From positions 1 through 64,000 of the IMG/VR virus record IMGVR_UViG_3300045594_000287: a DNA stretch of 64,000 nt; one strand, written 5' to 3'. Numbering within the stretch: position 1 is the first letter of the stretch; every line of letters begins with the position of its first letter. Shown here one piece after another: positions 4,982 through 12,158 of this stretch. Both the position numbers and the translations under genes were made by a program. The DNA comes from a virus (lineage: Duplodnaviria > Caudoviricetes). The notes under the pieces are model-generated. The model worked only from the letters and a program-made list of their open reading frames with translations, made no database searches and was not told where the DNA came from.

Positions 4982-6913
4982 TTAGCCTACGACGCTTTCG
5001 AAATAGGCCATGCCATCAACTGGCACGCCATTCTCATCTACATCGTATGAAGGAGCAACCTGTTCTTTGGCAGGCTTGCAATAACGACCACTGAGACGAC
5101 CGGTGCGGCGAACCTCATGTTTTGCACTGGACACTTTCATATCTAACGGCTCAACGAACTCGGTATCCTGGCTATCTTTCACGTCAGACATGAGTACGAG
5201 AGCAACCTTATGATTCTTCTTCACCTGCACCCCATGCTTACCGGAGACTTTCATCTCAAGTTCGCAGGAAATCATGCCGGTAATTTTGCCAGTCTTATTA
5301 CGGTACATTGCCTGAATCGATTCCGGATTATCAGAGCCCAAAGAAGTTCTGAATTTACCGATCATCTTTCCATCAACGACAATTGCATCGTGAAGATCTT
5401 TGCCGTCTTGCTGCTTACGATATGGAATCAATGTAACTTCCTTGTCTTCCATCTTTTTCATAACAGCTGTAAGATTTTCATCTCCCCAATCACTCCCCTT
5501 AGTGATAAAGCAGAGAACAGATCCATCCGGATCTTCAGGAGCGAGAACTTCTTTGATGAGCTTAGAAGCTACAAGATGTCCATTCTTGTTCTTGCGAATA
5601 GTGAATTCACCATCAAGCTCATCATCGGCAGCTTTTGCGAATTTGCCATCATCGCCATAAGCCTCGCCGAAAACGAACTCTGCCACATCGCCTTCCTTGA
5701 AGGTGCAGCTGATGAGTTTGTCCTCGGTATACTTTGCAACCTTGTCTTCATCCTTGAAGATCTGCAGCACGAATGCGAGGAACTCCTTATCCAAGACGCC
5801 ATGCGCATAACTGGAATACTGACTGTCTTCTTTGTTATCTCCAACCATGATGACAGATACCAGTACGGCAGCCCGCATGGATGCACTGAGATCGCGCATC
5901 TGGAATCTCAGAGTCTTGGCAAGGTAGGTATAGAAGGGTGCCATATCCTTTTTGAGATCCTTGATATGAGCCTCAGCCTTATAGCGATCAGGATACCGAT
6001 CACGAATATCTCTGATGCGAGTTGCCTGCACATTAGAAATAGAGCTATAAGCCTGTTTTAAGAACTCTGCCACTTGGCAAGCGCCGGTATGTTTTGGCAC
6101 GACAGATGTTTCCATCCATGCCAAAGTACGCTGGCTGAACTGCTGCTTCATCTTTGCAAACTCCTTTGCAAACGTGCAGCCTGCCTTCAATGACAGAATC
6201 CGGAGATCCTGCTGGAAGTCATGAATAACACGCACATCCTGTTTTGTGCCATCCTGAAGCTTCTTGACAGTCGTATATGACGGTCTCTCATCACATACGT
6301 ACTTAACACCGCAGAATCTCTTCCAGCCATGCTCCTTGCGGCCGATAAACTCATCGTGATCCGGTTCAAGGATGATTCTCTTCTTATCCTCATCCATGCA
6401 ATGACGCCAATCGACTTCGAAATTGAAATCGTTGTCGCTGCGTTTCCTTGACATCATTTTGACATTGCTCATGGCCTGGGCATAATCAAGGCAGAGTACC
6501 GGATCACTTGTCTTGAATGTATCAATCGACATCTCCTGCCCCATGCGGCCATTTGCATGAAGATCAGTTAATGCTGCCATGCAATTGTTCTTCGTAAGCT
6601 TCATCTCACGAGAATTCGCGACAATTACATCCGACTTCAAGATATCAATTCCCTGTGTGGGAATGTTATTATCTTGAACTTCCGGATTGCCAAGCGGAGA
6701 CACATATTCTGTTTCTCCACCGTTATTGCCAAAGCCAATATTGAAGATGGCTTTGACATCCTCCGGAACTTCATCTTTTGCAGCATTAAGCTGTACTAAT
6801 GCCTCTGAGAACGGAAGATGACGTACCGTTACTCTACCGACATCCAGGCTGTCATTAGCCAGGATATTTTTGAGGGCTTGGTTTCCAATATTGTAGTTCA
6901 TAACGTTTTCCAT
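4982..6913 (-). CDS. C-terminal part of a split YonO/RdRP-like RNA polymerase (643 aa)
   Basis: NDSLDVGRVT resembles the post-catalytic N..LG.I helix, and QEMSIDTFKT resembles the (A/V)(V/I)D(F/Y)AKT motif of cellular RdRPs and YonO. Own AGGAGG RBS; directly downstream of the DFDGD gene. Confidence 0.7.
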   Translation of the reverse strand: MENVMNYNIGNQALKNILANDSLDVGRVTVRHLPFSEALVQLNAAKDEVPEDVKAIFNIGFGNNGGETEYVSPLGNPEVQDNNIPTQGIDILKSDVIVANSREMKLTKNNCMAALTDLHANGRMGQEMSIDTFKTSDPVLCLDYAQAMSNVKMMSRKRSDNDFNFEVDWRHCMDEDKKRIILEPDHDEFIGRKEHGWKRFCGVKYVCDERPSYTTVKKLQDGTKQDVRVIHDFQQDLRILSLKAGCTFAKEFAKMKQQFSQRTLAWMETSVVPKHTGACQVAEFLKQAYSSISNVQATRIRDIRDRYPDRYKAEAHIKDLKKDMAPFYTYLAKTLRFQMRDLSASMRAAVLVSVIMVGDNKEDSQYSSYAHGVLDKEFLAFVLQIFKDEDKVAKYTEDKLISCTFKEGDVAEFVFGEAYGDDGKFAKAADDELDGEFTIRKNKNGHLVASKLIKEVLAPEDPDGSVLCFITKGSDWGDENLTAVMKKMEDKEVTLIPYRKQQDGKDLHDAIVVDGKMIGKFRTSLGSDNPESIQAMYRNKTGKITGMISCELEMKVSGKHGVQVKKNHKVALVLMSDVKDSQDTEFVEPLDMKVSSAKHEVRRTGRLSGRYCKPAKEQVAPSYDVDENGVPVDGMAYFESVVG

Positions 6914-6962
6914 GATATATTCCTCCTAATAAATAGAGCCGCCCATTGCTGAGCGGCCAACC

Positions 6963-9026
6963 TTATAATGCTGCCTCGAAAGCCTTGTCATCAGCTTTTC
7001 TCTTGACATCCGTATCAATCACGACAGCAAGAGGAGTTACATTCCAGAGAATATCGACAAAGCCGATCTCTCCGTCACTTTCCTCCCCATATCCAACACA
7101 TGCATCCCCATCGAAGTCCATGCCTGCCAGCATATTCTTCAACTCTTCCAGAGCTGGGATGGCAATGTTACCACCGGTCATTTTGCCAGCCTGCTCGATA
7201 ATCAACTTCTTCTGATAAGCAGTCAACTTCTCAGAAGCATTGACTCTGCGAGCATACTCAGCTAAAGAAACCGGTACAGCCTTTGCAAACTCTCTGAAAT
7301 GCATCTTTGGATATTTCACCAGAATCATGCGATTCCATTTAGCTGCATTGGCAACTGGGCTGATCACTTCACATTCTCCATCCTTGGAATACGTGAGAAT
7401 CCGTGCACCGAAGTCGGCGGCAGGATCTGTCGTCAATTTCATATATGCACCAGGCACAGTTACATTCAAGCGATTGAATGCAGTGACCAATCCTTTGCAA
7501 GCATTGTCAATATTACTACGGAAAATCGGTGCATAGTTTTCCAAAACGAATTTTGGAGCAATGCGTCCGATCAGTTGTGGAATATCGACATTTCCACTAC
7601 TGATCTCCGCATACGTCGGTGCGGATCCTTCATCTGCAAGCAGACGCTCACGAATGCTCTCAATCATGGCACGCATCTTACGCTCATACCAGACCTTCGT
7701 GGCTACCGGATCGATAACCATTGCAGACTGGATGCTCTGCGACGATGCGTTTGCGCCAGATTCTGGATGATGTTCAGTATGAGACATATCCAATGCATTC
7801 AGGCCCGACATCCTTGTCAAGTCAAACGGAGCCTTGAGCCCATTGAGATCAGTAGCATAATCCGCTGCTTCCTCGTCGCTCTTCCTTGAATCGACAATGC
7901 GCACCCACTTCCCTGCATATGCGCCTTCTTTGCCTTTAGAAAACACCGTCTTTGTGAACTTCGCCTGGATTTTATCATCTACCTCGTCACGATAGATAGT
8001 AACCATTTTAGTATGGTCAACAGAAATGCGATAATTGACAAACTCTTTCAAGTAAGCCCTCATCACGCACTGAGCCATGACTTTGCAGGTCCAAGGCCTG
8101 GTCTGCAGCGAAATGCCAGCTGGTGCATCAGGCATAACGAAATACCTCTTCGGATCTATCGCAGTAAGGCACTCTGCAACGAATTCCGATGCGACCATTG
8201 CGAATCCATCCTTGAACTCATTTCCAAGATCATCCTTGATCTTGCCCATGTATACAACGAAATTGCCTACATTAAGGAGTGGGGTGCTGCTGGCGCAGAA
8301 CGCTGATAAACGAACATTGCCCTGAGCTACTTCTTTTGGAGAAGCAACGCATGCCAACTGGCAGAGCTGATCACTTGCACCATATGTGACCTTGCTCCAG
8401 ATTGCCTTCCTATCAACTCCAGGAAGGTTGCATGCCGGCATAGTCAGTGTGCTCAACTTAAGCTGGCCTGCTGTACCGCGTGCACAGCTGTCTACATCAT
8501 TGTAGACAATAACGTCTTCTTTAACGTTACCATCGGCATTGAATACCTCAGACAATGGGGCTTCGTTATCCTTTTCTTCACCGAAGCGAAGAAGATCAAT
8601 AAGAACGCCATCATTCTCTGGATTAACCGTGTAGAATCTTTCGTTTACACCATCCTCACGATCCGGCACACGATAAATAACCTGATCGAGGATATATGCC
8701 ATGGCTTTATTCTGAATGGAAACATCCAGAATACCAACGGTATATCTTTGCACCATCTGTGGGCAATCTGCTTCAGTAGTTGCAGCTACTAAAACATTTT
8801 CCTGCATTGGCAACAAGGACGTCTCCAAACTTGGAGTAACGGTGATCAGCATACGCTGAACGCTGTCCTCATTGAAAACGAGCGACGTAGCCTTAAAGCT
8901 AGTCTCTGGCCGACTAAGTGCAAGACTGCGCATTGCCTCTACCTGGTGGGCAGAGAGCACGACTTTCTTTCCAAGAGCACGCTGCTCCCGGATCTTCTCG
9001 TTGCGATGGCTAATAAACTTACTCAT
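6963..9026 (-). CDS. YonO/QDE-1-like double-psi beta-barrel RNA polymerase, catalytic N-terminal part (687 aa)
   Basis: Ordered motifs FKDGFAM (cf. TDG), LQTRPWTCK (cf. Q.R...K), KYPKMH (cf. K/R-x-P-x-x-H) and AGMDFDGD (DFDGD at nt 7104-7118). Start ATG 9026 with AAGGAGG. Confidence 0.85.
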   Translation of the reverse strand: MSKFISHRNEKIREQRALGKKVVLSAHQVEAMRSLALSRPETSFKATSLVFNEDSVQRMLITVTPSLETSLLPMQENVLVAATTEADCPQMVQRYTVGILDVSIQNKAMAYILDQVIYRVPDREDGVNERFYTVNPENDGVLIDLLRFGEEKDNEAPLSEVFNADGNVKEDVIVYNDVDSCARGTAGQLKLSTLTMPACNLPGVDRKAIWSKVTYGASDQLCQLACVASPKEVAQGNVRLSAFCASSTPLLNVGNFVVYMGKIKDDLGNEFKDGFAMVASEFVAECLTAIDPKRYFVMPDAPAGISLQTRPWTCKVMAQCVMRAYLKEFVNYRISVDHTKMVTIYRDEVDDKIQAKFTKTVFSKGKEGAYAGKWVRIVDSRKSDEEAADYATDLNGLKAPFDLTRMSGLNALDMSHTEHHPESGANASSQSIQSAMVIDPVATKVWYERKMRAMIESIRERLLADEGSAPTYAEISSGNVDIPQLIGRIAPKFVLENYAPIFRSNIDNACKGLVTAFNRLNVTVPGAYMKLTTDPAADFGARILTYSKDGECEVISPVANAAKWNRMILVKYPKMHFREFAKAVPVSLAEYARRVNASEKLTAYQKKLIIEQAGKMTGGNIAIPALEELKNMLAGMDFDGDACVGYGEESDGEIGFVDILWNVTPLAVVIDTDVKRKADDKAFEAAL

Positions 9027-9039
9027 TATGGTTTCCTCC

Positions 9040-9068
9040 TTTAATGGATAGACCACCTATGCTATAAT
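9040..9068 (+). promoter_or_regulatory. sigmaA-type extended -10 promoter P1 (antisense to the early operon)
   Basis: TG-C-TATAAT at 9060-9068; weak -35 TTTAAT at 17-bp spacing. Confidence 0.65.
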
Positions 9069-9105
9069 GAGTAATGCATAGGCGGGGTTAAATGGATAGA
9101 CATAG

Positions 9106-9141
9106 TTAAATGGATGGGACATTGTGCGATGACTTACTCAT
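9106..9141 (-). CDS. Putative leader uORF MSKSSHNVPSI sharing the start context of the RNAP gene
   Basis: AGGAAACCATAATGAGTAAGT is identical to the RNAP start context; stop at 9106-9108. Confidence 0.35.
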   Translation of the reverse strand: MSKSSHNVPSI

Positions 9142-9199
9142 TATGGTTTCCTTCTACCTTGTTTATGTACGAGAATACGGTTGCAGCCATATTCTCACG

Positions 9200-9228
9200 A
9201 GCCGGTTGTTGTCGCAGCCGGCTTTTTT
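9200..9228 (+). terminator. Intrinsic terminator of sRNA 1
   Basis: AGCCGGTTG-loop-CAGCCGGCT plus T run; the stem mismatch is a G-U wobble only on the + strand. Confidence 0.8.
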
Positions 9229-9248
9229 GTGCAAAGAGAAGGATTCCC

Positions 9249-9277
9249 TTGTCTGTAAGGGGTATCAGTGCTATAAT
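9249..9277 (+). promoter_or_regulatory. sigmaA promoter P2
   Basis: TTGTCT-17 bp-TATAAT with extended TG. Confidence 0.8.
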
Positions 9278-9283
9278 GAGCAA

Positions 9284-9383
9284 TGCATAAGTGTCTCCTA
9301 TTGAGTGGGTATGATTAACTATGCAACTGAGAGCGGTATTGCTGTTCTCCACGAAGTCGACTGCTGAGCACAGTCGGCTTTTT
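9284..9383 (+). ncRNA. Putative sRNA 2 (about 100 nt), same 3' architecture as sRNA 1
   Basis: Promoter P2, GAGA..TTCTC hairpin, terminator AAGTCGACTG/CAGTCGGCTT plus T run (9354-9383). Confidence 0.6.
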
Positions 9384-9416
9384 GTGTTACAAGAAGTTAA
9401 TCTCGGCTGCTGTGGT

Positions 9417-9445
9417 TTGAATGTGCCCTTCCGGCATGGTAGTTT
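9417..9445 (+). promoter_or_regulatory. Possible sigmaA promoter P3 (antisense to 9467-9688)
   Basis: TTGAAT-17 bp-TAGTTT with extended TG. Confidence 0.45.
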
Positions 9446-9466
9446 AACGTCATTCCGGACGATAGC

Positions 9467-9688
9467 TTACTGGATCTCGGCAGTGATGGTGTATTCTCCA
9501 TCTTCATAACTCTGGGATACAATCTTCATAGGAGCACCGCTCGTCTGACGGTATACGTCAACAATTGCTGCGCGGCGGGCCATCATCCTCCCCTGAGCAC
9601 CACCCATATTGACCGGTGCCATACCATGACCGACTACGATCATAGCAACGAGAGTAACAACGACTTTGAAACCTTTGAAATTAAACAT
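9467..9688 (-). CDS. Small protein with N-terminal hydrophobic/signal segment (73 aa)
   Basis: ATG 9688 right after the leader repeat RBS; MFNFKGFKVVVTLVAMIVVG. Confidence 0.7.
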   Translation of the reverse strand: MFNFKGFKVVVTLVAMIVVGHGMAPVNMGGAQGRMMARRAAIVDVYRQTSGAPMKIVSQSYEDGEYTITAEIQ

Positions 9689-9693
9689 AACGT

Positions 9694-9730
9694 ACCTCTT
9701 TCTCCCCGTATACGCCGATAGGACAGCAAT
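9694..9730 (-). repeat. 37-bp leader/RBS repeat, copy 1 (ATTGCTGTCCTATCGGCGTATACGGGGAGAAAGAGGT)
   Basis: Identical to 9993-10029, similar to 10243-10276. Confidence 0.9.
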
Positions 9731-9733
9731 CAA

Positions 9734-9814
9734 TTAATGGAGACGCTCTCCATGATCATCAAGATCAAGAAAAGCCTTAATAAATTCCCAAACCTCTTTA
9801 ATAAACTTTTTCAT
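9734..9814 (-). CDS. 26-aa amphipathic peptide MKKFIKEVWEFIKAFLDLDDHGERLH (not in the ORF track)
   Basis: Strong GAGGAGGA RBS; fills the gap between neighbouring elements. Confidence 0.6.
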   Translation of the reverse strand: MKKFIKEVWEFIKAFLDLDDHGERLH

Positions 9815-9828
9815 AACAGTTCCTCCTC

Positions 9829-9987
9829 TTACTTGTTAAGTTTTGCAATGTTTGCTGCCTGCGGATCACCATTCTTCCAAGCATCAGAAGCATCTTCAAA
9901 AGATACATCTTCCTCTGCCTTCACCATGTAGCCAATGGAAGCAGAAATACCAACAGCAGCGATAGCGACAAAAATGTAGATAGCCAT
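9829..9987 (-). CDS. Small membrane protein (52 aa)
   Basis: ATG 9987 after the leader repeat; N-terminal hydrophobic helix MAIYIFVAIAAVGISASIGYMV. Confidence 0.7.
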   Translation of the reverse strand: MAIYIFVAIAAVGISASIGYMVKAEEDVSFEDASDAWKNGDPQAANIAKLNK

Positions 9988-9992
9988 GATAA

Positions 9993-10029
9993 ACCTCTTT
10001 CTCCCCGTATACGCCGATAGGACAGCAAT
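9993..10029 (-). repeat. 37-bp leader/RBS repeat, copy 2
   Basis: Identical to 9694-9730. Confidence 0.9.
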
Positions 10030-10036
10030 AAAAAGA

Positions 10037-10237
10037 TTAAGCGTTTTCGACAATGTAACCACGGAAGATGTAATCACGAATCGTATCCGCGGTTACCTTC
10101 CCAGAGAAGTAGTCGTCAATTACCTTTTCCGTCTCTTTTCTGAGGCGAACAGGGAACTGTCCCATACGACCATTCTCCATAGGCAGCTCATACTGAACTC
10201 TGTAGTTGGATCCCTCAAAATCAAACGAAGTAAACAT
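10037..10237 (-). CDS. Hypothetical protein (66 aa)
   Basis: ATG 10237 after leader repeat copy 3. Confidence 0.7.
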   Translation of the reverse strand: MFTSFDFEGSNYRVQYELPMENGRMGQFPVRLRKETEKVIDDYFSGKVTADTIRDYIFRGYIVENA

Positions 10238-10242
10238 GATGT

Positions 10243-10276
10243 ACCTCTTTCTCCCCGTAGTCAGATAGGACAACAT
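10243..10276 (-). repeat. Leader/RBS repeat, divergent copy 3
   Basis: TGTCCTATCTGACTACGGGGAGAAAGAGGT. Confidence 0.8.
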
Positions 10277-10396
10277 CAGAATAAATACTCTTAACCCCTG
10301 TCTCTCACAGGGACGCCCATTCAACTCCGGTTTTCACGAGGCGCTACCTTAGTAGTTGGGTCGTCGTCTTTTATTTATAGTGCGTGACGTCAGCAC

Positions 10397-10425
10397 TTGC
10401 GTTTACCATAAGTAGGTGATAGAAT
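10397..10425 (+). promoter_or_regulatory. sigmaA promoter P4 (antisense to peptide gene 10426-10578)
   Basis: TTGCGT-17 bp-TAGAAT with extended TG. Confidence 0.75.
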
Positions 10426-10578
10426 TTATCTGTATTGTTCCACCACGACAGTCTGGAAGTTATCACTTCCATCAATAGCTGCAGGCGCCATAAGCACCAT
10501 TGCACCTATCAGTGCCGCCATAACGGCAGCGCCAATTCTGTTGAGGGTACGAGTTTTACCAAATACTTTAATAGTCAT
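10426..10578 (-). CDS. 50-aa single-TM peptide MTIKVFGKTRTLNRIGAAVMAALIGAMVLMAPAAI... (type I toxin-like; not in the ORF track)
   Basis: Translated by hand; AAAGGAG RBS; N-terminus similar to 10714-10851. Confidence 0.7.
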   Translation of the reverse strand: MTIKVFGKTRTLNRIGAAVMAALIGAMVLMAPAAIDGSDNFQTVVVEQYR

Positions 10579-10638
10579 GATTGCATTCTCCTTTCATGAC
10601 GCACTGCCCTAACATATCGTAAGTATGCTAGGGCTTTT
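10432..10638 (+). ncRNA. Putative cis-antisense RNA 3 covering peptide gene 10426-10578 and its RBS
   Basis: P4 upstream; hairpin GCCCTA..TAGGGC plus TTTT at 10606-10638 (one A-C mismatch on this strand). Confidence 0.5.
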
Positions 10639-10665
10639 CCTTATAGAAGGCAGTTTTTATTACCC

Positions 10666-10694
10666 TGGACATGCTCAGGCCCAGCTGTTACAAT
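10666..10694 (+). promoter_or_regulatory. sigmaA promoter P5 (antisense to peptide gene 10714-10851)
   Basis: TGGACA-17 bp-TACAAT with extended TG. Confidence 0.75.
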
Positions 10695-10700
10695 AAGAGA

Positions 10701-10914
10701 TGCAAGATATTGTTTACTGTGCGATACGAGCTAACTGCATAATATGCCCATACCAATCAGCACCTACCAGTGCTGCTACAGTTGCTATAGTATATACAGC
10801 TGCAGTAGCACGGTCTAATGAACGGATCTTGCCTAAAAATTTGATAGTCATGATTGAATCATCCTTTCTTCATGACGCCTTGCCCTAGCGTCCCTATGTG
10901 CTAGGGCTTTTTTT
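10701..10914 (+). ncRNA. Putative cis-antisense RNA 4 covering peptide gene 10714-10851 and its RBS
   Basis: P5 upstream; terminator GCCCTAGC/GCTAGGGC plus T7 at 10882-10914. Confidence 0.6.
10714..10851 (-). CDS. 45-aa single-TM peptide MTIKFLGKIRSLDRATAAVYTIATVAALVGA... (type I toxin-like; not in the ORF track)
   Basis: Translated by hand; AGAAAGGA RBS; leader shared with 10426-10578. Confidence 0.7.
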   Translation of the reverse strand: MTIKFLGKIRSLDRATAAVYTIATVAALVGADWYGHIMQLARIAQ

Positions 10915-11191
10915 GTTCTTTCTTTTCGCTCAAAAGAACTTCATTGAGAACACTACCCGGGGGCTCAAAAGCCCCCATTGATGTTTCATAAAAAGTACCG
11001 GGTCCCTCGATAAATTTTTTATAATTTTCGAATCCCTATAGGCGTTTTCTGAAAATATTTCATAACATTTTTTCTTTTCCTATAAATTTTCAGTATATTC
11101 GGTAAATTTCGGGCGGAGGTAACTTTTTAGATCCCAGATGAAGTACAGAATCTACGAAGCGTAATATTCCTGTATGAGGAGGGAAAAGAAT

Positions 11192-11479
11192 ATGTCAAAA
11201 GTATGGGTTAATGGAAAAGGGCCTGTAGAAGGCTCATTCTCTTTCGAAGTTGCACTTGATGAAACGGCACAGCCGCCTGTATATATCATTGAGGGAGTCT
11301 TTTCGTGTGCTCATGGGTACTATGAAGAGATCGACAGTTTGGTTAACGAGAGGTATCGTCTGGACCGTGTACGCGTGTACAAGGAAGTGTACGGATCCGA
11401 TGAGGATACAATCTTGTATTATTTTCGGGCTGGAGACTACGGAATGAGAGACTTTAAGGAGGAAAAGAAAGATGGCTGA
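11192..11479 (+). CDS. Hypothetical protein (95 aa)
   Basis: ATG 11192 with GAGGAGGG RBS; overlaps the start of the next gene. Confidence 0.75.
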   Translation: MSKVWVNGKGPVEGSFSFEVALDETAQPPVYIIEGVFSCAHGYYEEIDSLVNERYRLDRVRVYKEVYGSDEDTILYYFRAGDYGMRDFKEEKKDG

Positions 11480-12158
11480 AGAAAATGACGATGAGCTTCA
11501 GCTCATCGATGACTCTGGAGAGGTTGAAGCTTCTTTGGCAAGAACGAATCGAGAGAACTTTGAACGTTCGTTGGTTACGCAGAACCTTTGGCAGCATTCG
11601 GCGAAGGGCCTGGAAGCGAAACGTGCTGCCATGACTATGTTGTCGACGAAGACAGGTATGTATGCTCGTATTCCTTTACTTTGCAAAGGAGATGATTGTC
11701 CATACACAGATACGTGTCAGCTTCTCCCCTATGACCTGGCTCCTGTAGGCGAGTATTGTCCTCAGGAAACTGCTCAGATCGAGTTGAGAGCCAACGCGTA
11801 TGCTCAGGACTTCGATGTCGACACAATGAGTTTTACAGATAAAACTCTACTAAATGAAATCATCGGTTTCGACATCATGCTTGAACGCTGCAGAGCACTG
11901 ATGGCTAAGGAAGGCACGCCAGTGGTCGAAGTAGTAGCTGGGATAGCGGATAACGGAGACGAGATTAAACAACCTGCTGTGTCTAAAGCATGGGAAGCTT
12001 ACGAGAAGATCTCGAAGAAGCGAGATGCTGCTTATCAGCTCATGATGATGACGCGTAGGGATAACAAGAACAACTCTGACGAAGAACAGTCAGCTCTTTC
12101 TGCTATGTTGGACAACGTGATAACGGAACAAGATGTAGAGGAAGAGAAAGATAAGTAG
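11472..12158 (+). CDS. Hypothetical protein with Cys4 cluster, possible terminase small subunit
   Basis: CKGDDCPYTDTC...YCP, helical C-terminal half with PAV..WE; near the start of the packaging block. The function is positional inference. Confidence 0.45.
   Translation: MAEENDDELQLIDDSGEVEASLARTNRENFERSLVTQNLWQHSAKGLEAKRAAMTMLSTKTGMYARIPLLCKGDDCPYTDTCQLLPYDLAPVGEYCPQETAQIELRANAYAQDFDVDTMSFTDKTLLNEIIGFDIMLERCRALMAKEGTPVVEVVAGIADNGDEIKQPAVSKAWEAYEKISKKRDAAYQLMMMTRRDNKNNSDEEQSALSAMLDNVITEQDVEEEKDK

Follow-up and report, generated by a model that had tools for sequence, protein, structure and literature searches.

What occupies the gene-free DNA ahead of a predicted phage RNA polymerase (RNAP) gene, and could it set how much of that polymerase is made? 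The question is raised by positions 9019 to 9144 of the window analyzed here, which comprises the opening 64 kb of a linear IMG/VR virus record (Caudoviricetes; 106,938 bp) with a CheckV completeness of about 45%. Protein genes run along the minus strand from approximately 1.4 to 10.9 kb, and a structural block occupies the plus strand from 11.5 kb onward. Within the minus strand array, a 440-bp gap without genes separates a 73-amino-acid (aa) gene (9467 to 9688) from a 687-aa gene (6963 to 9026). The initial annotation proposed that the leader of the polymerase mRNA, which traverses this gap, is a two-state switch in which a hairpin loop pairs either with the true start or with an upstream decoy start. 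We consider it about an even chance (probability near 0.5), judging from the sequence, that in these 126 bp the minus strand polymerase leader overlaps the head of a plus strand gene for an antisense small RNA (sRNA), here termed sRNA 1, which carries a copy of the polymerase start site and represses the polymerase.

A predicted antisense RNA gene opposite the polymerase leader

The plus strand unit begins with a promoter, P1, whose extended −10 element TGCTATAAT (9060 to 9068) is preceded by TA, which yields the Gram-positive-type pattern TRTGnTATAAT, and whose −35 box, TTTAAT, is poor. As had been recognized before, this element lies within the loop of a hairpin on the opposite strand. A host sigma-A-type RNA polymerase would start transcription from it at about position 9075 and would stop at an intrinsic terminator (stem at 9199 to 9224, T6 run at 9225 to 9230) found by the terminator scan. 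The predicted product, sRNA 1 (9075 to 9230, plus strand), is a three-hairpin RNA of about 155 nucleotides (nt), in which a long imperfect 5′ hairpin containing the anti-start segment is followed by a middle hairpin and by the terminator. Its minimum free energy (MFE) is −56.0 kcal/mol, with a z score of −4.15, versus −33.4 kcal/mol and a z score of −1.45 for the same interval read on the minus strand. The closing helix has 14 bp, five of them G-U pairs that turn into C-A mismatches on the minus strand, and therefore it can form in the plus strand RNA only. A promoter and a terminator on the strand opposite the gene, as expected for an antisense sRNA, are thus present at the pattern level and enclose a stable, strand-specific structure. 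A search of positions 8500 to 12000 against Rfam returned no family at E values up to 1, and no tRNAs were found.

The putative target of sRNA 1 is the true translation initiation region of the polymerase gene (9017 to 9040, minus strand), consisting of the Shine-Dalgarno (SD) sequence AGGAGG at 9040 to 9035, an 8-nt spacer, the AUG at 9026 to 9024, and codons 2 and 3. This region holds, at 9019 to 9029, the 11-mer ATAATGAGTAA, which occurs again at 9134 to 9144 on the same strand, as the initial annotation had pointed out. The duplication proved to be longer than described there, since it extends over 24 nt with 23 of 24 positions identical (9017 to 9040 versus 9132 to 9155) and resumes, beyond an 8-nt indel, with the 7-nt block CATCGCA. 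Read on the plus strand, the upstream copy (9132 to 9155) is the anti-start segment of sRNA 1, capable of 24 to 25 contiguous pairs with the true SD-AUG region, where the single A/G difference between the start copies is accommodated as a G-U pair. According to RNAduplex, the start region and the plus strand RNA form a duplex of −39.5 kcal/mol, compared with a shuffle mean of −20.0 kcal/mol (z score of −8.6), so that the complementarity extended across SD and AUG goes beyond chance. In the 107-kb genome, 9132 to 9155 is the sole extended trans match of sRNA 1.

From these elements, the strand-specific fold and the complementarity, we infer that sRNA 1 is transcribed, that it pairs with the polymerase mRNA in vivo and that it represses the gene. 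Its antisense copy of the duplicated start would pair over 24 contiguous nt with the true SD sequence, the AUG and the first codons, and a further 7 nt would pair with the mRNA beyond a bulge. Such pairing would block ribosome binding or provoke cleavage of the duplex, with the consequence that less phage polymerase would be made. Furthermore, sRNA 1 would be perfectly antisense to any leader arising by read-through.

The same arrangement offers an explanation for the decoy. The upstream ATG (9141 to 9139) does open an 11-codon open reading frame (ORF) encoding MSKSSHNVPSI (9106 to 9141, minus strand), closed by a TAA stop at 9108 to 9106, and this duplicated start is preceded by a weakened SD sequence, AGAAGG, at 9155 to 9150. 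Beyond codon 3, the ORF resembles the real gene at the DNA level only, since the 8-nt indel shifts the frame, and we therefore take the 11-codon ORF to be a by-product. Because sRNA 1 carries the 24-nt complement of the start, the simplest view of the decoy start is that it represents the template strand of the anti-start segment. Another ORF on the minus strand, of 72 aa (9134 to 9352), was rejected because it is without an SD sequence; it was not called by the gene caller for the record L004 either.

A second plus strand unit (9249 to 9386) follows the first. Its promoter, TTGTCT-17-TGCTATAAT, matches the consensus at 10 of 12 positions and has the additional TG, and the predicted sRNA 2, of about 100 nt, would begin at about 9284 and end at a terminator at 9353 to 9381 followed by T5. 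The 21-mer TGCTATAATGAG[T/C]AATGCATA marks the promoter and 5′ end of both units (9060 and 9269, plus strand; 20 of 21 positions identical), and the two copies of TGNTATAAT in the window are both located in these units. The units can be aligned at the promoter/5′ end and at the terminator and differ in their bodies, so that by sequence they resemble paralogous sRNA genes whose inserts have been exchanged. Terminator-like sites number eight, with 1.9 expected, and two of them close units 1 and 2. Like sRNA 1, sRNA 2 folds better on the plus strand (−37.9 kcal/mol, z score of −3.52) than on the minus strand (−23.1 kcal/mol, z score of −1.41). Its 5′ domain (sRNA 2 spanning 9284 to 9386, plus strand) carries the anti-SD-like sequence GUGUCUCCUAU. 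When trans targets of sRNA 2 were sought in the 107-kb record, the best was a 12-nt chance match; its target may belong to the host or to that part of the phage genome which the record lacks. Two other roles for the 21-mer were rejected: a plus strand mini-ORF (MSNA, stop) at this sequence is without an SD sequence, and a promoter for the phage polymerase is not indicated by a sequence present in two copies, neither of them ahead of late genes.

The polymerase and its relatives

The designation of the 687-aa gene as an RNAP gene was borne out by structure prediction. Searches against Pfam, PHROGs and PDB, the last both with the single sequence and with profiles, all remained without a match, and it was therefore the fold match alone that provided the identity. 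The AlphaFold2 model of the protein (predicted local distance difference test score, 88.7) was matched by Foldseek to QDE-1 (7y7q_B, E value of 1.8e-10) and to the virion RNAP of the crAss-like phage phi14:2 (6vr4_A, E value of 2.4e-3), with matches to QDE-1 and RDR2 spanning 1e-10 to 1e-7. An exhaustive HMMER search gathered 193 representatives of the family, in split (approximately 690 aa) and fused (1200 to 1500 aa) forms. Within the G-x-D-x-D-G-D loop, DFDGD is invariant, and D637, D639 and D641 are kept in 27 of the 27 family members examined. The protein thus combines the double-psi beta-barrel fold with the metal-binding DxDGD loop of two-barrel polymerases and is, as modeled, the N-terminal half of a split RNA polymerase of the QDE-1/YonO type. 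Among the proteins P0016 to P0046, the split form pairs an approximately 690-aa with an approximately 640-aa protein (window positions 4982 to 9026, minus strand, and L002, L003, L012 and L013), and the fused form covers 1064 to 1500 aa, as in L008.

Upstream of the gene, the 10-bp hairpin named in the initial annotation was found on the minus strand at 9085 to 9053, with the arms CCGCCUAUGC and GCAUAGGUGG, one G-U pair and a loop of 13 nt; its energy is −15.3 kcal/mol, and it ends 26 nt upstream of the AUG. Roughly estimated rather than computed, several hairpins with a 7+2 Watson-Crick stem are to be expected per 64 kb. The hairpin does not qualify as an intrinsic terminator on the gene strand, which would require a G+C-rich stem and a U run behind it, since its tail is UCUAUCCAUU, and the terminator scan did not flag it. 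We compared it with seven relative loci of six lineages (L002/L003, L008, L009, L010, L012 and L013; 31 to 42% protein identity). Terminator-like hairpins are located 29 to 100 nt ahead of the homologous gene in L003, L009, L010 and L013, and in L003, L009 and L010 they consist of a hairpin with a U run as in true intrinsic terminators. These terminators occupy the same position as the window hairpin. The latter is probably real as RNA and is read as a boundary or stability hairpin and not as the element of a switch.

In three of the relative loci, a Gram-positive-type extended −10 sequence, TATG[C/G]TATAAT, is found in antisense orientation 80 to 85 nt upstream of the polymerase gene (L002:1840-1900, L003:3890-3940 and L008:2490-2530), overlapping the 5′ arm of the sense terminator in L002 and L003. 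Promoters of host type that diverge from the polymerase gene may therefore recur at these loci, the anti-start RNA being specific to the lineage of the window. The nearest relative with an upstream gap, here of 392 nt, is P0004, which has 41% identity and lies on a contig of SRR13001969. Protein-guided scans of viral, metagenome and genome collections recovered distant loci or a fragment only, and a blastn search against a phage database gave no match. DNA-pattern scans with the 21-mer and with a 19-mer returned chance matches only, at unrelated gene starts. The 19-mer, GGAAACCATAATGAGTAAG, forms an SD-AUG-Ser-Lys gene start in three metagenome-assembled genomes, those of a giant virus (L016:1886-1904), a member of the Aminicenantales (L017:7454-7472) and a member of the Chloroflexota (L018:2415-2433), a count close to chance.

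Weighing the readings of the leader

Several observations weigh against a repressing sRNA 1. The consensus promoter scan missed P1, which was not flagged because its −35 box is weak. The anti-start segment is buried in the 5′ hairpin, most of its nucleotides having unpaired probabilities below 0.15, and its opening costs 8.9 kcal/mol; no obvious exposed seed was seen in the segment. When the gap is folded as a whole (477 nt), both strands are equally structured relative to shuffles (z scores of −5.1 and −5.4). In the seven relative loci, complementarity to their own start site is not significant on either strand (z scores from +1.8 to −2.0), and the other copies of the locus, L004 and L005, are identical and so offer no variation in which covariation could appear. 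Finally, an antisense sRNA leaves unaccounted for the 11-nt identity between its promoter and the start site (P of approximately 0.001 to 0.004), for which an inverted duplication later exapted as a −10 box (CATAAT to TATAAT), pairing within the leader and a shared binding factor are candidates.

The alternative that survives best, which we still regard as unlikely, is that the arrangement is an evolutionary scar with no dedicated control, left by duplication of the start region and by insertion of a small palindromic promoter element, now bounded by 14-bp direct repeats; the hairpin would be a terminator that has decayed, and the complementarities would be by-products of little consequence for regulation. 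Three copies of TTAAATGGATRGRC are present (9040 to 9053, 9088 to 9101 and 9106 to 9120, in plus strand coordinates), and the first two, identical at 13 of 14 positions, flank the hairpin element (9054 to 9087); a 14-bp pair around a 34-bp palindromic promoter element is like a target duplication. Such a history is also in keeping with the order of the repeated modules, which does not fit a simple tandem duplication, with the plain terminators found at the same position in the relatives and with the limitation of the arrangement to one lineage. It does not readily explain, however, why the 24-nt copy is nearly perfect although its flanks have diverged, why it sits exactly between promoter and terminator and within a strongly structured plus strand RNA, or why a paralogous second unit is present. 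As to the repeats themselves, the first copy of TTAAATGGATRGRC reads on the mRNA as the anti-SD-like UCUAUCC beside the true SD sequence, with which it pairs in local folds; in these, the true SD is unpaired with a mean probability of 0.20. The repeats may serve as a site for protein binding or as an anti-SD element, or they may be the scar of an insertion.

The switch, in the form weighed here, presupposes a long minus strand mRNA whose hairpin loop has two alternative partners, the decoy and the true start. Once a ribosome, sRNA 1 or an upstream second anti-start copy occupied the decoy, the loop would be released and would close the true AUG. Its sequence elements are in place. The loop 11-mer UUACUCAUUAU (9074 to 9064, minus strand), which on the plus strand represents the −10 and discriminator of P1, is complementary to both starts, as had been stated. 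Of 3000 shuffles of the nearest 109 nt, 0.1% contained a stretch fully complementary to the start region over 11 nt, and for the whole gap the share was 0.4%, which indicates that the match is not due to chance. A second anti-start copy, UUGCUCAUUAU (9273 to 9283, minus strand), pairs with either start through one G-U; this sole difference preserves minus strand pairing, for which a hand count gives a chance probability of about 0.2. Allowing at most one mismatch, the 11-mer has four copies in the 107-kb genome, all of them inside 9019 to 9283, two per orientation and in alternating order (second anti-start copy, decoy start, first anti-start copy, true start), a clustering that speaks for the switch. 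The leader could also be long enough, since there is no convincing minus strand promoter in the gap; the search yielded two weak candidates, each matching at 8 of 12 positions, and if either were the true promoter, part of the proposed switch would be gone from the mRNA. Lastly, with the hairpin melted, the forced alternative pairings are only 2 to 5 kcal/mol above the MFE (2.0 kcal/mol for the true start and 4.7 kcal/mol for the decoy).

For the alternation itself, i.e., the exchange of the loop between decoy and true start, our calculations gave no positive evidence, and we deem the switch quite improbable. The 161-nt leader folds like a random sequence (z score of −0.57), and the frequency of its MFE structure is 0.0006. 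The intramolecular duplex between loop and start, at −19.9 kcal/mol versus a shuffle mean of −17.1 kcal/mol (z score of −1.24), is an energetically ordinary AU-rich helix. Since the loop-start pairing crosses the hairpin stem, it amounts to a pseudoknot, in which 11 of the 13 loop nucleotides must pair and linkers of 1 nt are left. Published pseudoknot penalties are roughly 9 to 16 kcal/mol, and with the energies computed here (S1 stacking, −20.5 kcal/mol; hairpin loop, +5.3 kcal/mol; S2 stacking, −14.4 kcal/mol) they approximately offset the S2 stacking, which would place the knotted state and the plain hairpin at roughly equal energy before any steric cost. In nested ensembles, the loop-start helices have probabilities below 0.001, and the hairpin stem has a probability of 0.995 in the 477-nt leader. 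The complementarities, moreover, follow from two duplications and so are not independent evidence, and the element is absent from all relatives examined.

One pairing that is absent from the initial annotation does emerge from the 477-nt nested ensemble. In the minus strand RNA, 9273 to 9288 and 9129 to 9144 form a helix with 13 Watson-Crick pairs and one G-U pair in 16 positions, at a probability of 0.94. In this model, the second anti-start copy would hide the decoy start in any full-length leader, and the pairing counts in favor of the switch.

We consider it very improbable that the locus is a DNA-level operator, at which a phage regulator binds the imperfect palindrome at the P1 −10 box together with the three TTAAATGGATRGRC repeats and so sets the transcription of sRNA 1, of the polymerase gene or of both, the RNA hairpin being incidental. 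A 10-13-10 palindrome is indeed centered on the −10 box, the direct repeats span the −35 region and positions +13 to +45 of sRNA 1, and in L012 this position is taken by a divergently oriented gene of 67 aa that has a promoter of its own. The half-site and the repeat, however, are confined to this locus within the 107-kb record, no regulator emerged as a candidate, and the G-U pair in the stem favors a helix at the RNA level. Very unlikely, too, is an integrated RNA-only circuit in which the four alternating segments (anti-start 2, decoy, anti-start 1 in the loop, true start) act as an attenuator-like switch that is flipped when sRNA 1 binds to the decoy as well as to the hairpin's 5′ arm and so frees the loop to close the true AUG, while the 24-nt segment of the sRNA competes for the same site.

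Known antisense systems and the control of phage polymerases

The leader had been likened to that of the IncI plasmid gene repZ. IncI-alpha/IncB repZ/repA (with repY/repB and Inc RNA) shares with it a small leader ORF, a hairpin loop complementary to the ribosome site of the main gene and an antisense RNA from the opposite strand, but the analogy does not hold for the features that define that system. According to PMC8053102, the repZ antisense RNA blocks translation of the leader peptide and the pseudoknot is activating. There, translation of the leader ORF is coupled to that of the main gene, whereas here the stop of the ORF (9108 to 9106) lies 80 nt upstream of the AUG (9026 to 9024), with a stable hairpin in between. 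Activation of repZ translation requires the pseudoknot, whereas in the window the AUG itself lies within the pairing, which would thus occlude the start. In repZ, the antisense RNA binds the same loop, whereas here the loop is promoter DNA outside sRNA 1; since it corresponds to the −10 and discriminator of P1, with the start at about 9075, sRNA 1 covers only the 5′ arm of the hairpin and cannot compete for the loop. Between repZ and the system in the window there is no sequence or phylogenetic relation.

A nearer functional parallel, by analogy, is the blocking of a neighboring ribosome site by the C4 antisense RNA of the P1/P7 immI region, which acts on the icd-ant mRNA (Citron and Schuster 1990, 1992, as cited in PMC8198154 and PMC8546580). 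C4 is likewise a small phage RNA that adjoins its target, is complementary to a ribosome-binding region and blocks a key regulatory gene, but it is processed from an operon transcript of the same strand, whereas sRNA 1 would have a promoter and a terminator of its own on the opposite strand. The targets differ as well, being an antirepressor in the case of C4 and the phage's own RNA polymerase in the present one. As with the start region in the window, the target sequences of C4 are repeated within immI. Since no tyrosine or serine recombinase (integrase) was detected in the record, a role of sRNA 1 in immunity is not indicated.

Cis-encoded antisense RNAs of phages (lambda OOP, P22 sar) and of type I toxin-antitoxin loci (Sib/ibs-like cassettes) resemble the locus in having a promoter-to-terminator unit opposite a coding strand. 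The predicted target of sRNA 1, however, is a second, non-overlapping site 90 to 115 nt away, reached through the duplicated copy, so that sRNA 1 would be both a cis- and a trans-antisense RNA. Translational attenuation of the erm/cat kind, in which a leader peptide acts together with alternative hairpins masking the SD, shares the leader ORF and four alternately complementary segments ahead of the SD-AUG; here, in contrast, the peptide has no context for stalling, segment 3 is held within the loop of a stable hairpin, the leader ORF opens in segment 2 instead of covering segment 1, and neither a folding signal nor conservation was observed.

Farther upstream in the window, two more plus strand units were noted at 10397 to 10914, with the extended −10 elements TGATAGAAT at 10417 and TGTTACAAT at 10686, each with a terminator. 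They lie opposite minus strand genes for peptides of 50 aa and 45 aa that have a common leader, a layout like that of type I toxin-antitoxin systems. A repeat of 32 to 40 nt that includes a ribosome-binding site precedes three unrelated small genes on the minus strand (9679 to 9733, 9978 to 10032 and 10228 to 10259).

Phage RNA polymerases of the two-barrel type, single-chain or split (YonO, crAss-like), are recent discoveries, and we know of nothing on how phages dose them. If the ordinary reading alone holds, the locus adds one further antisense RNA in a single uncultured lineage. If repression by sRNA 1 is true, an antisense RNA driven by a host promoter and directed at the start of the polymerase gene would be a simple control of timing or dosage for the switch from host to phage transcription, and the locus would show a route by which sRNAs originate, namely, that an sRNA scaffold already present takes up a copy of the start region of its target.

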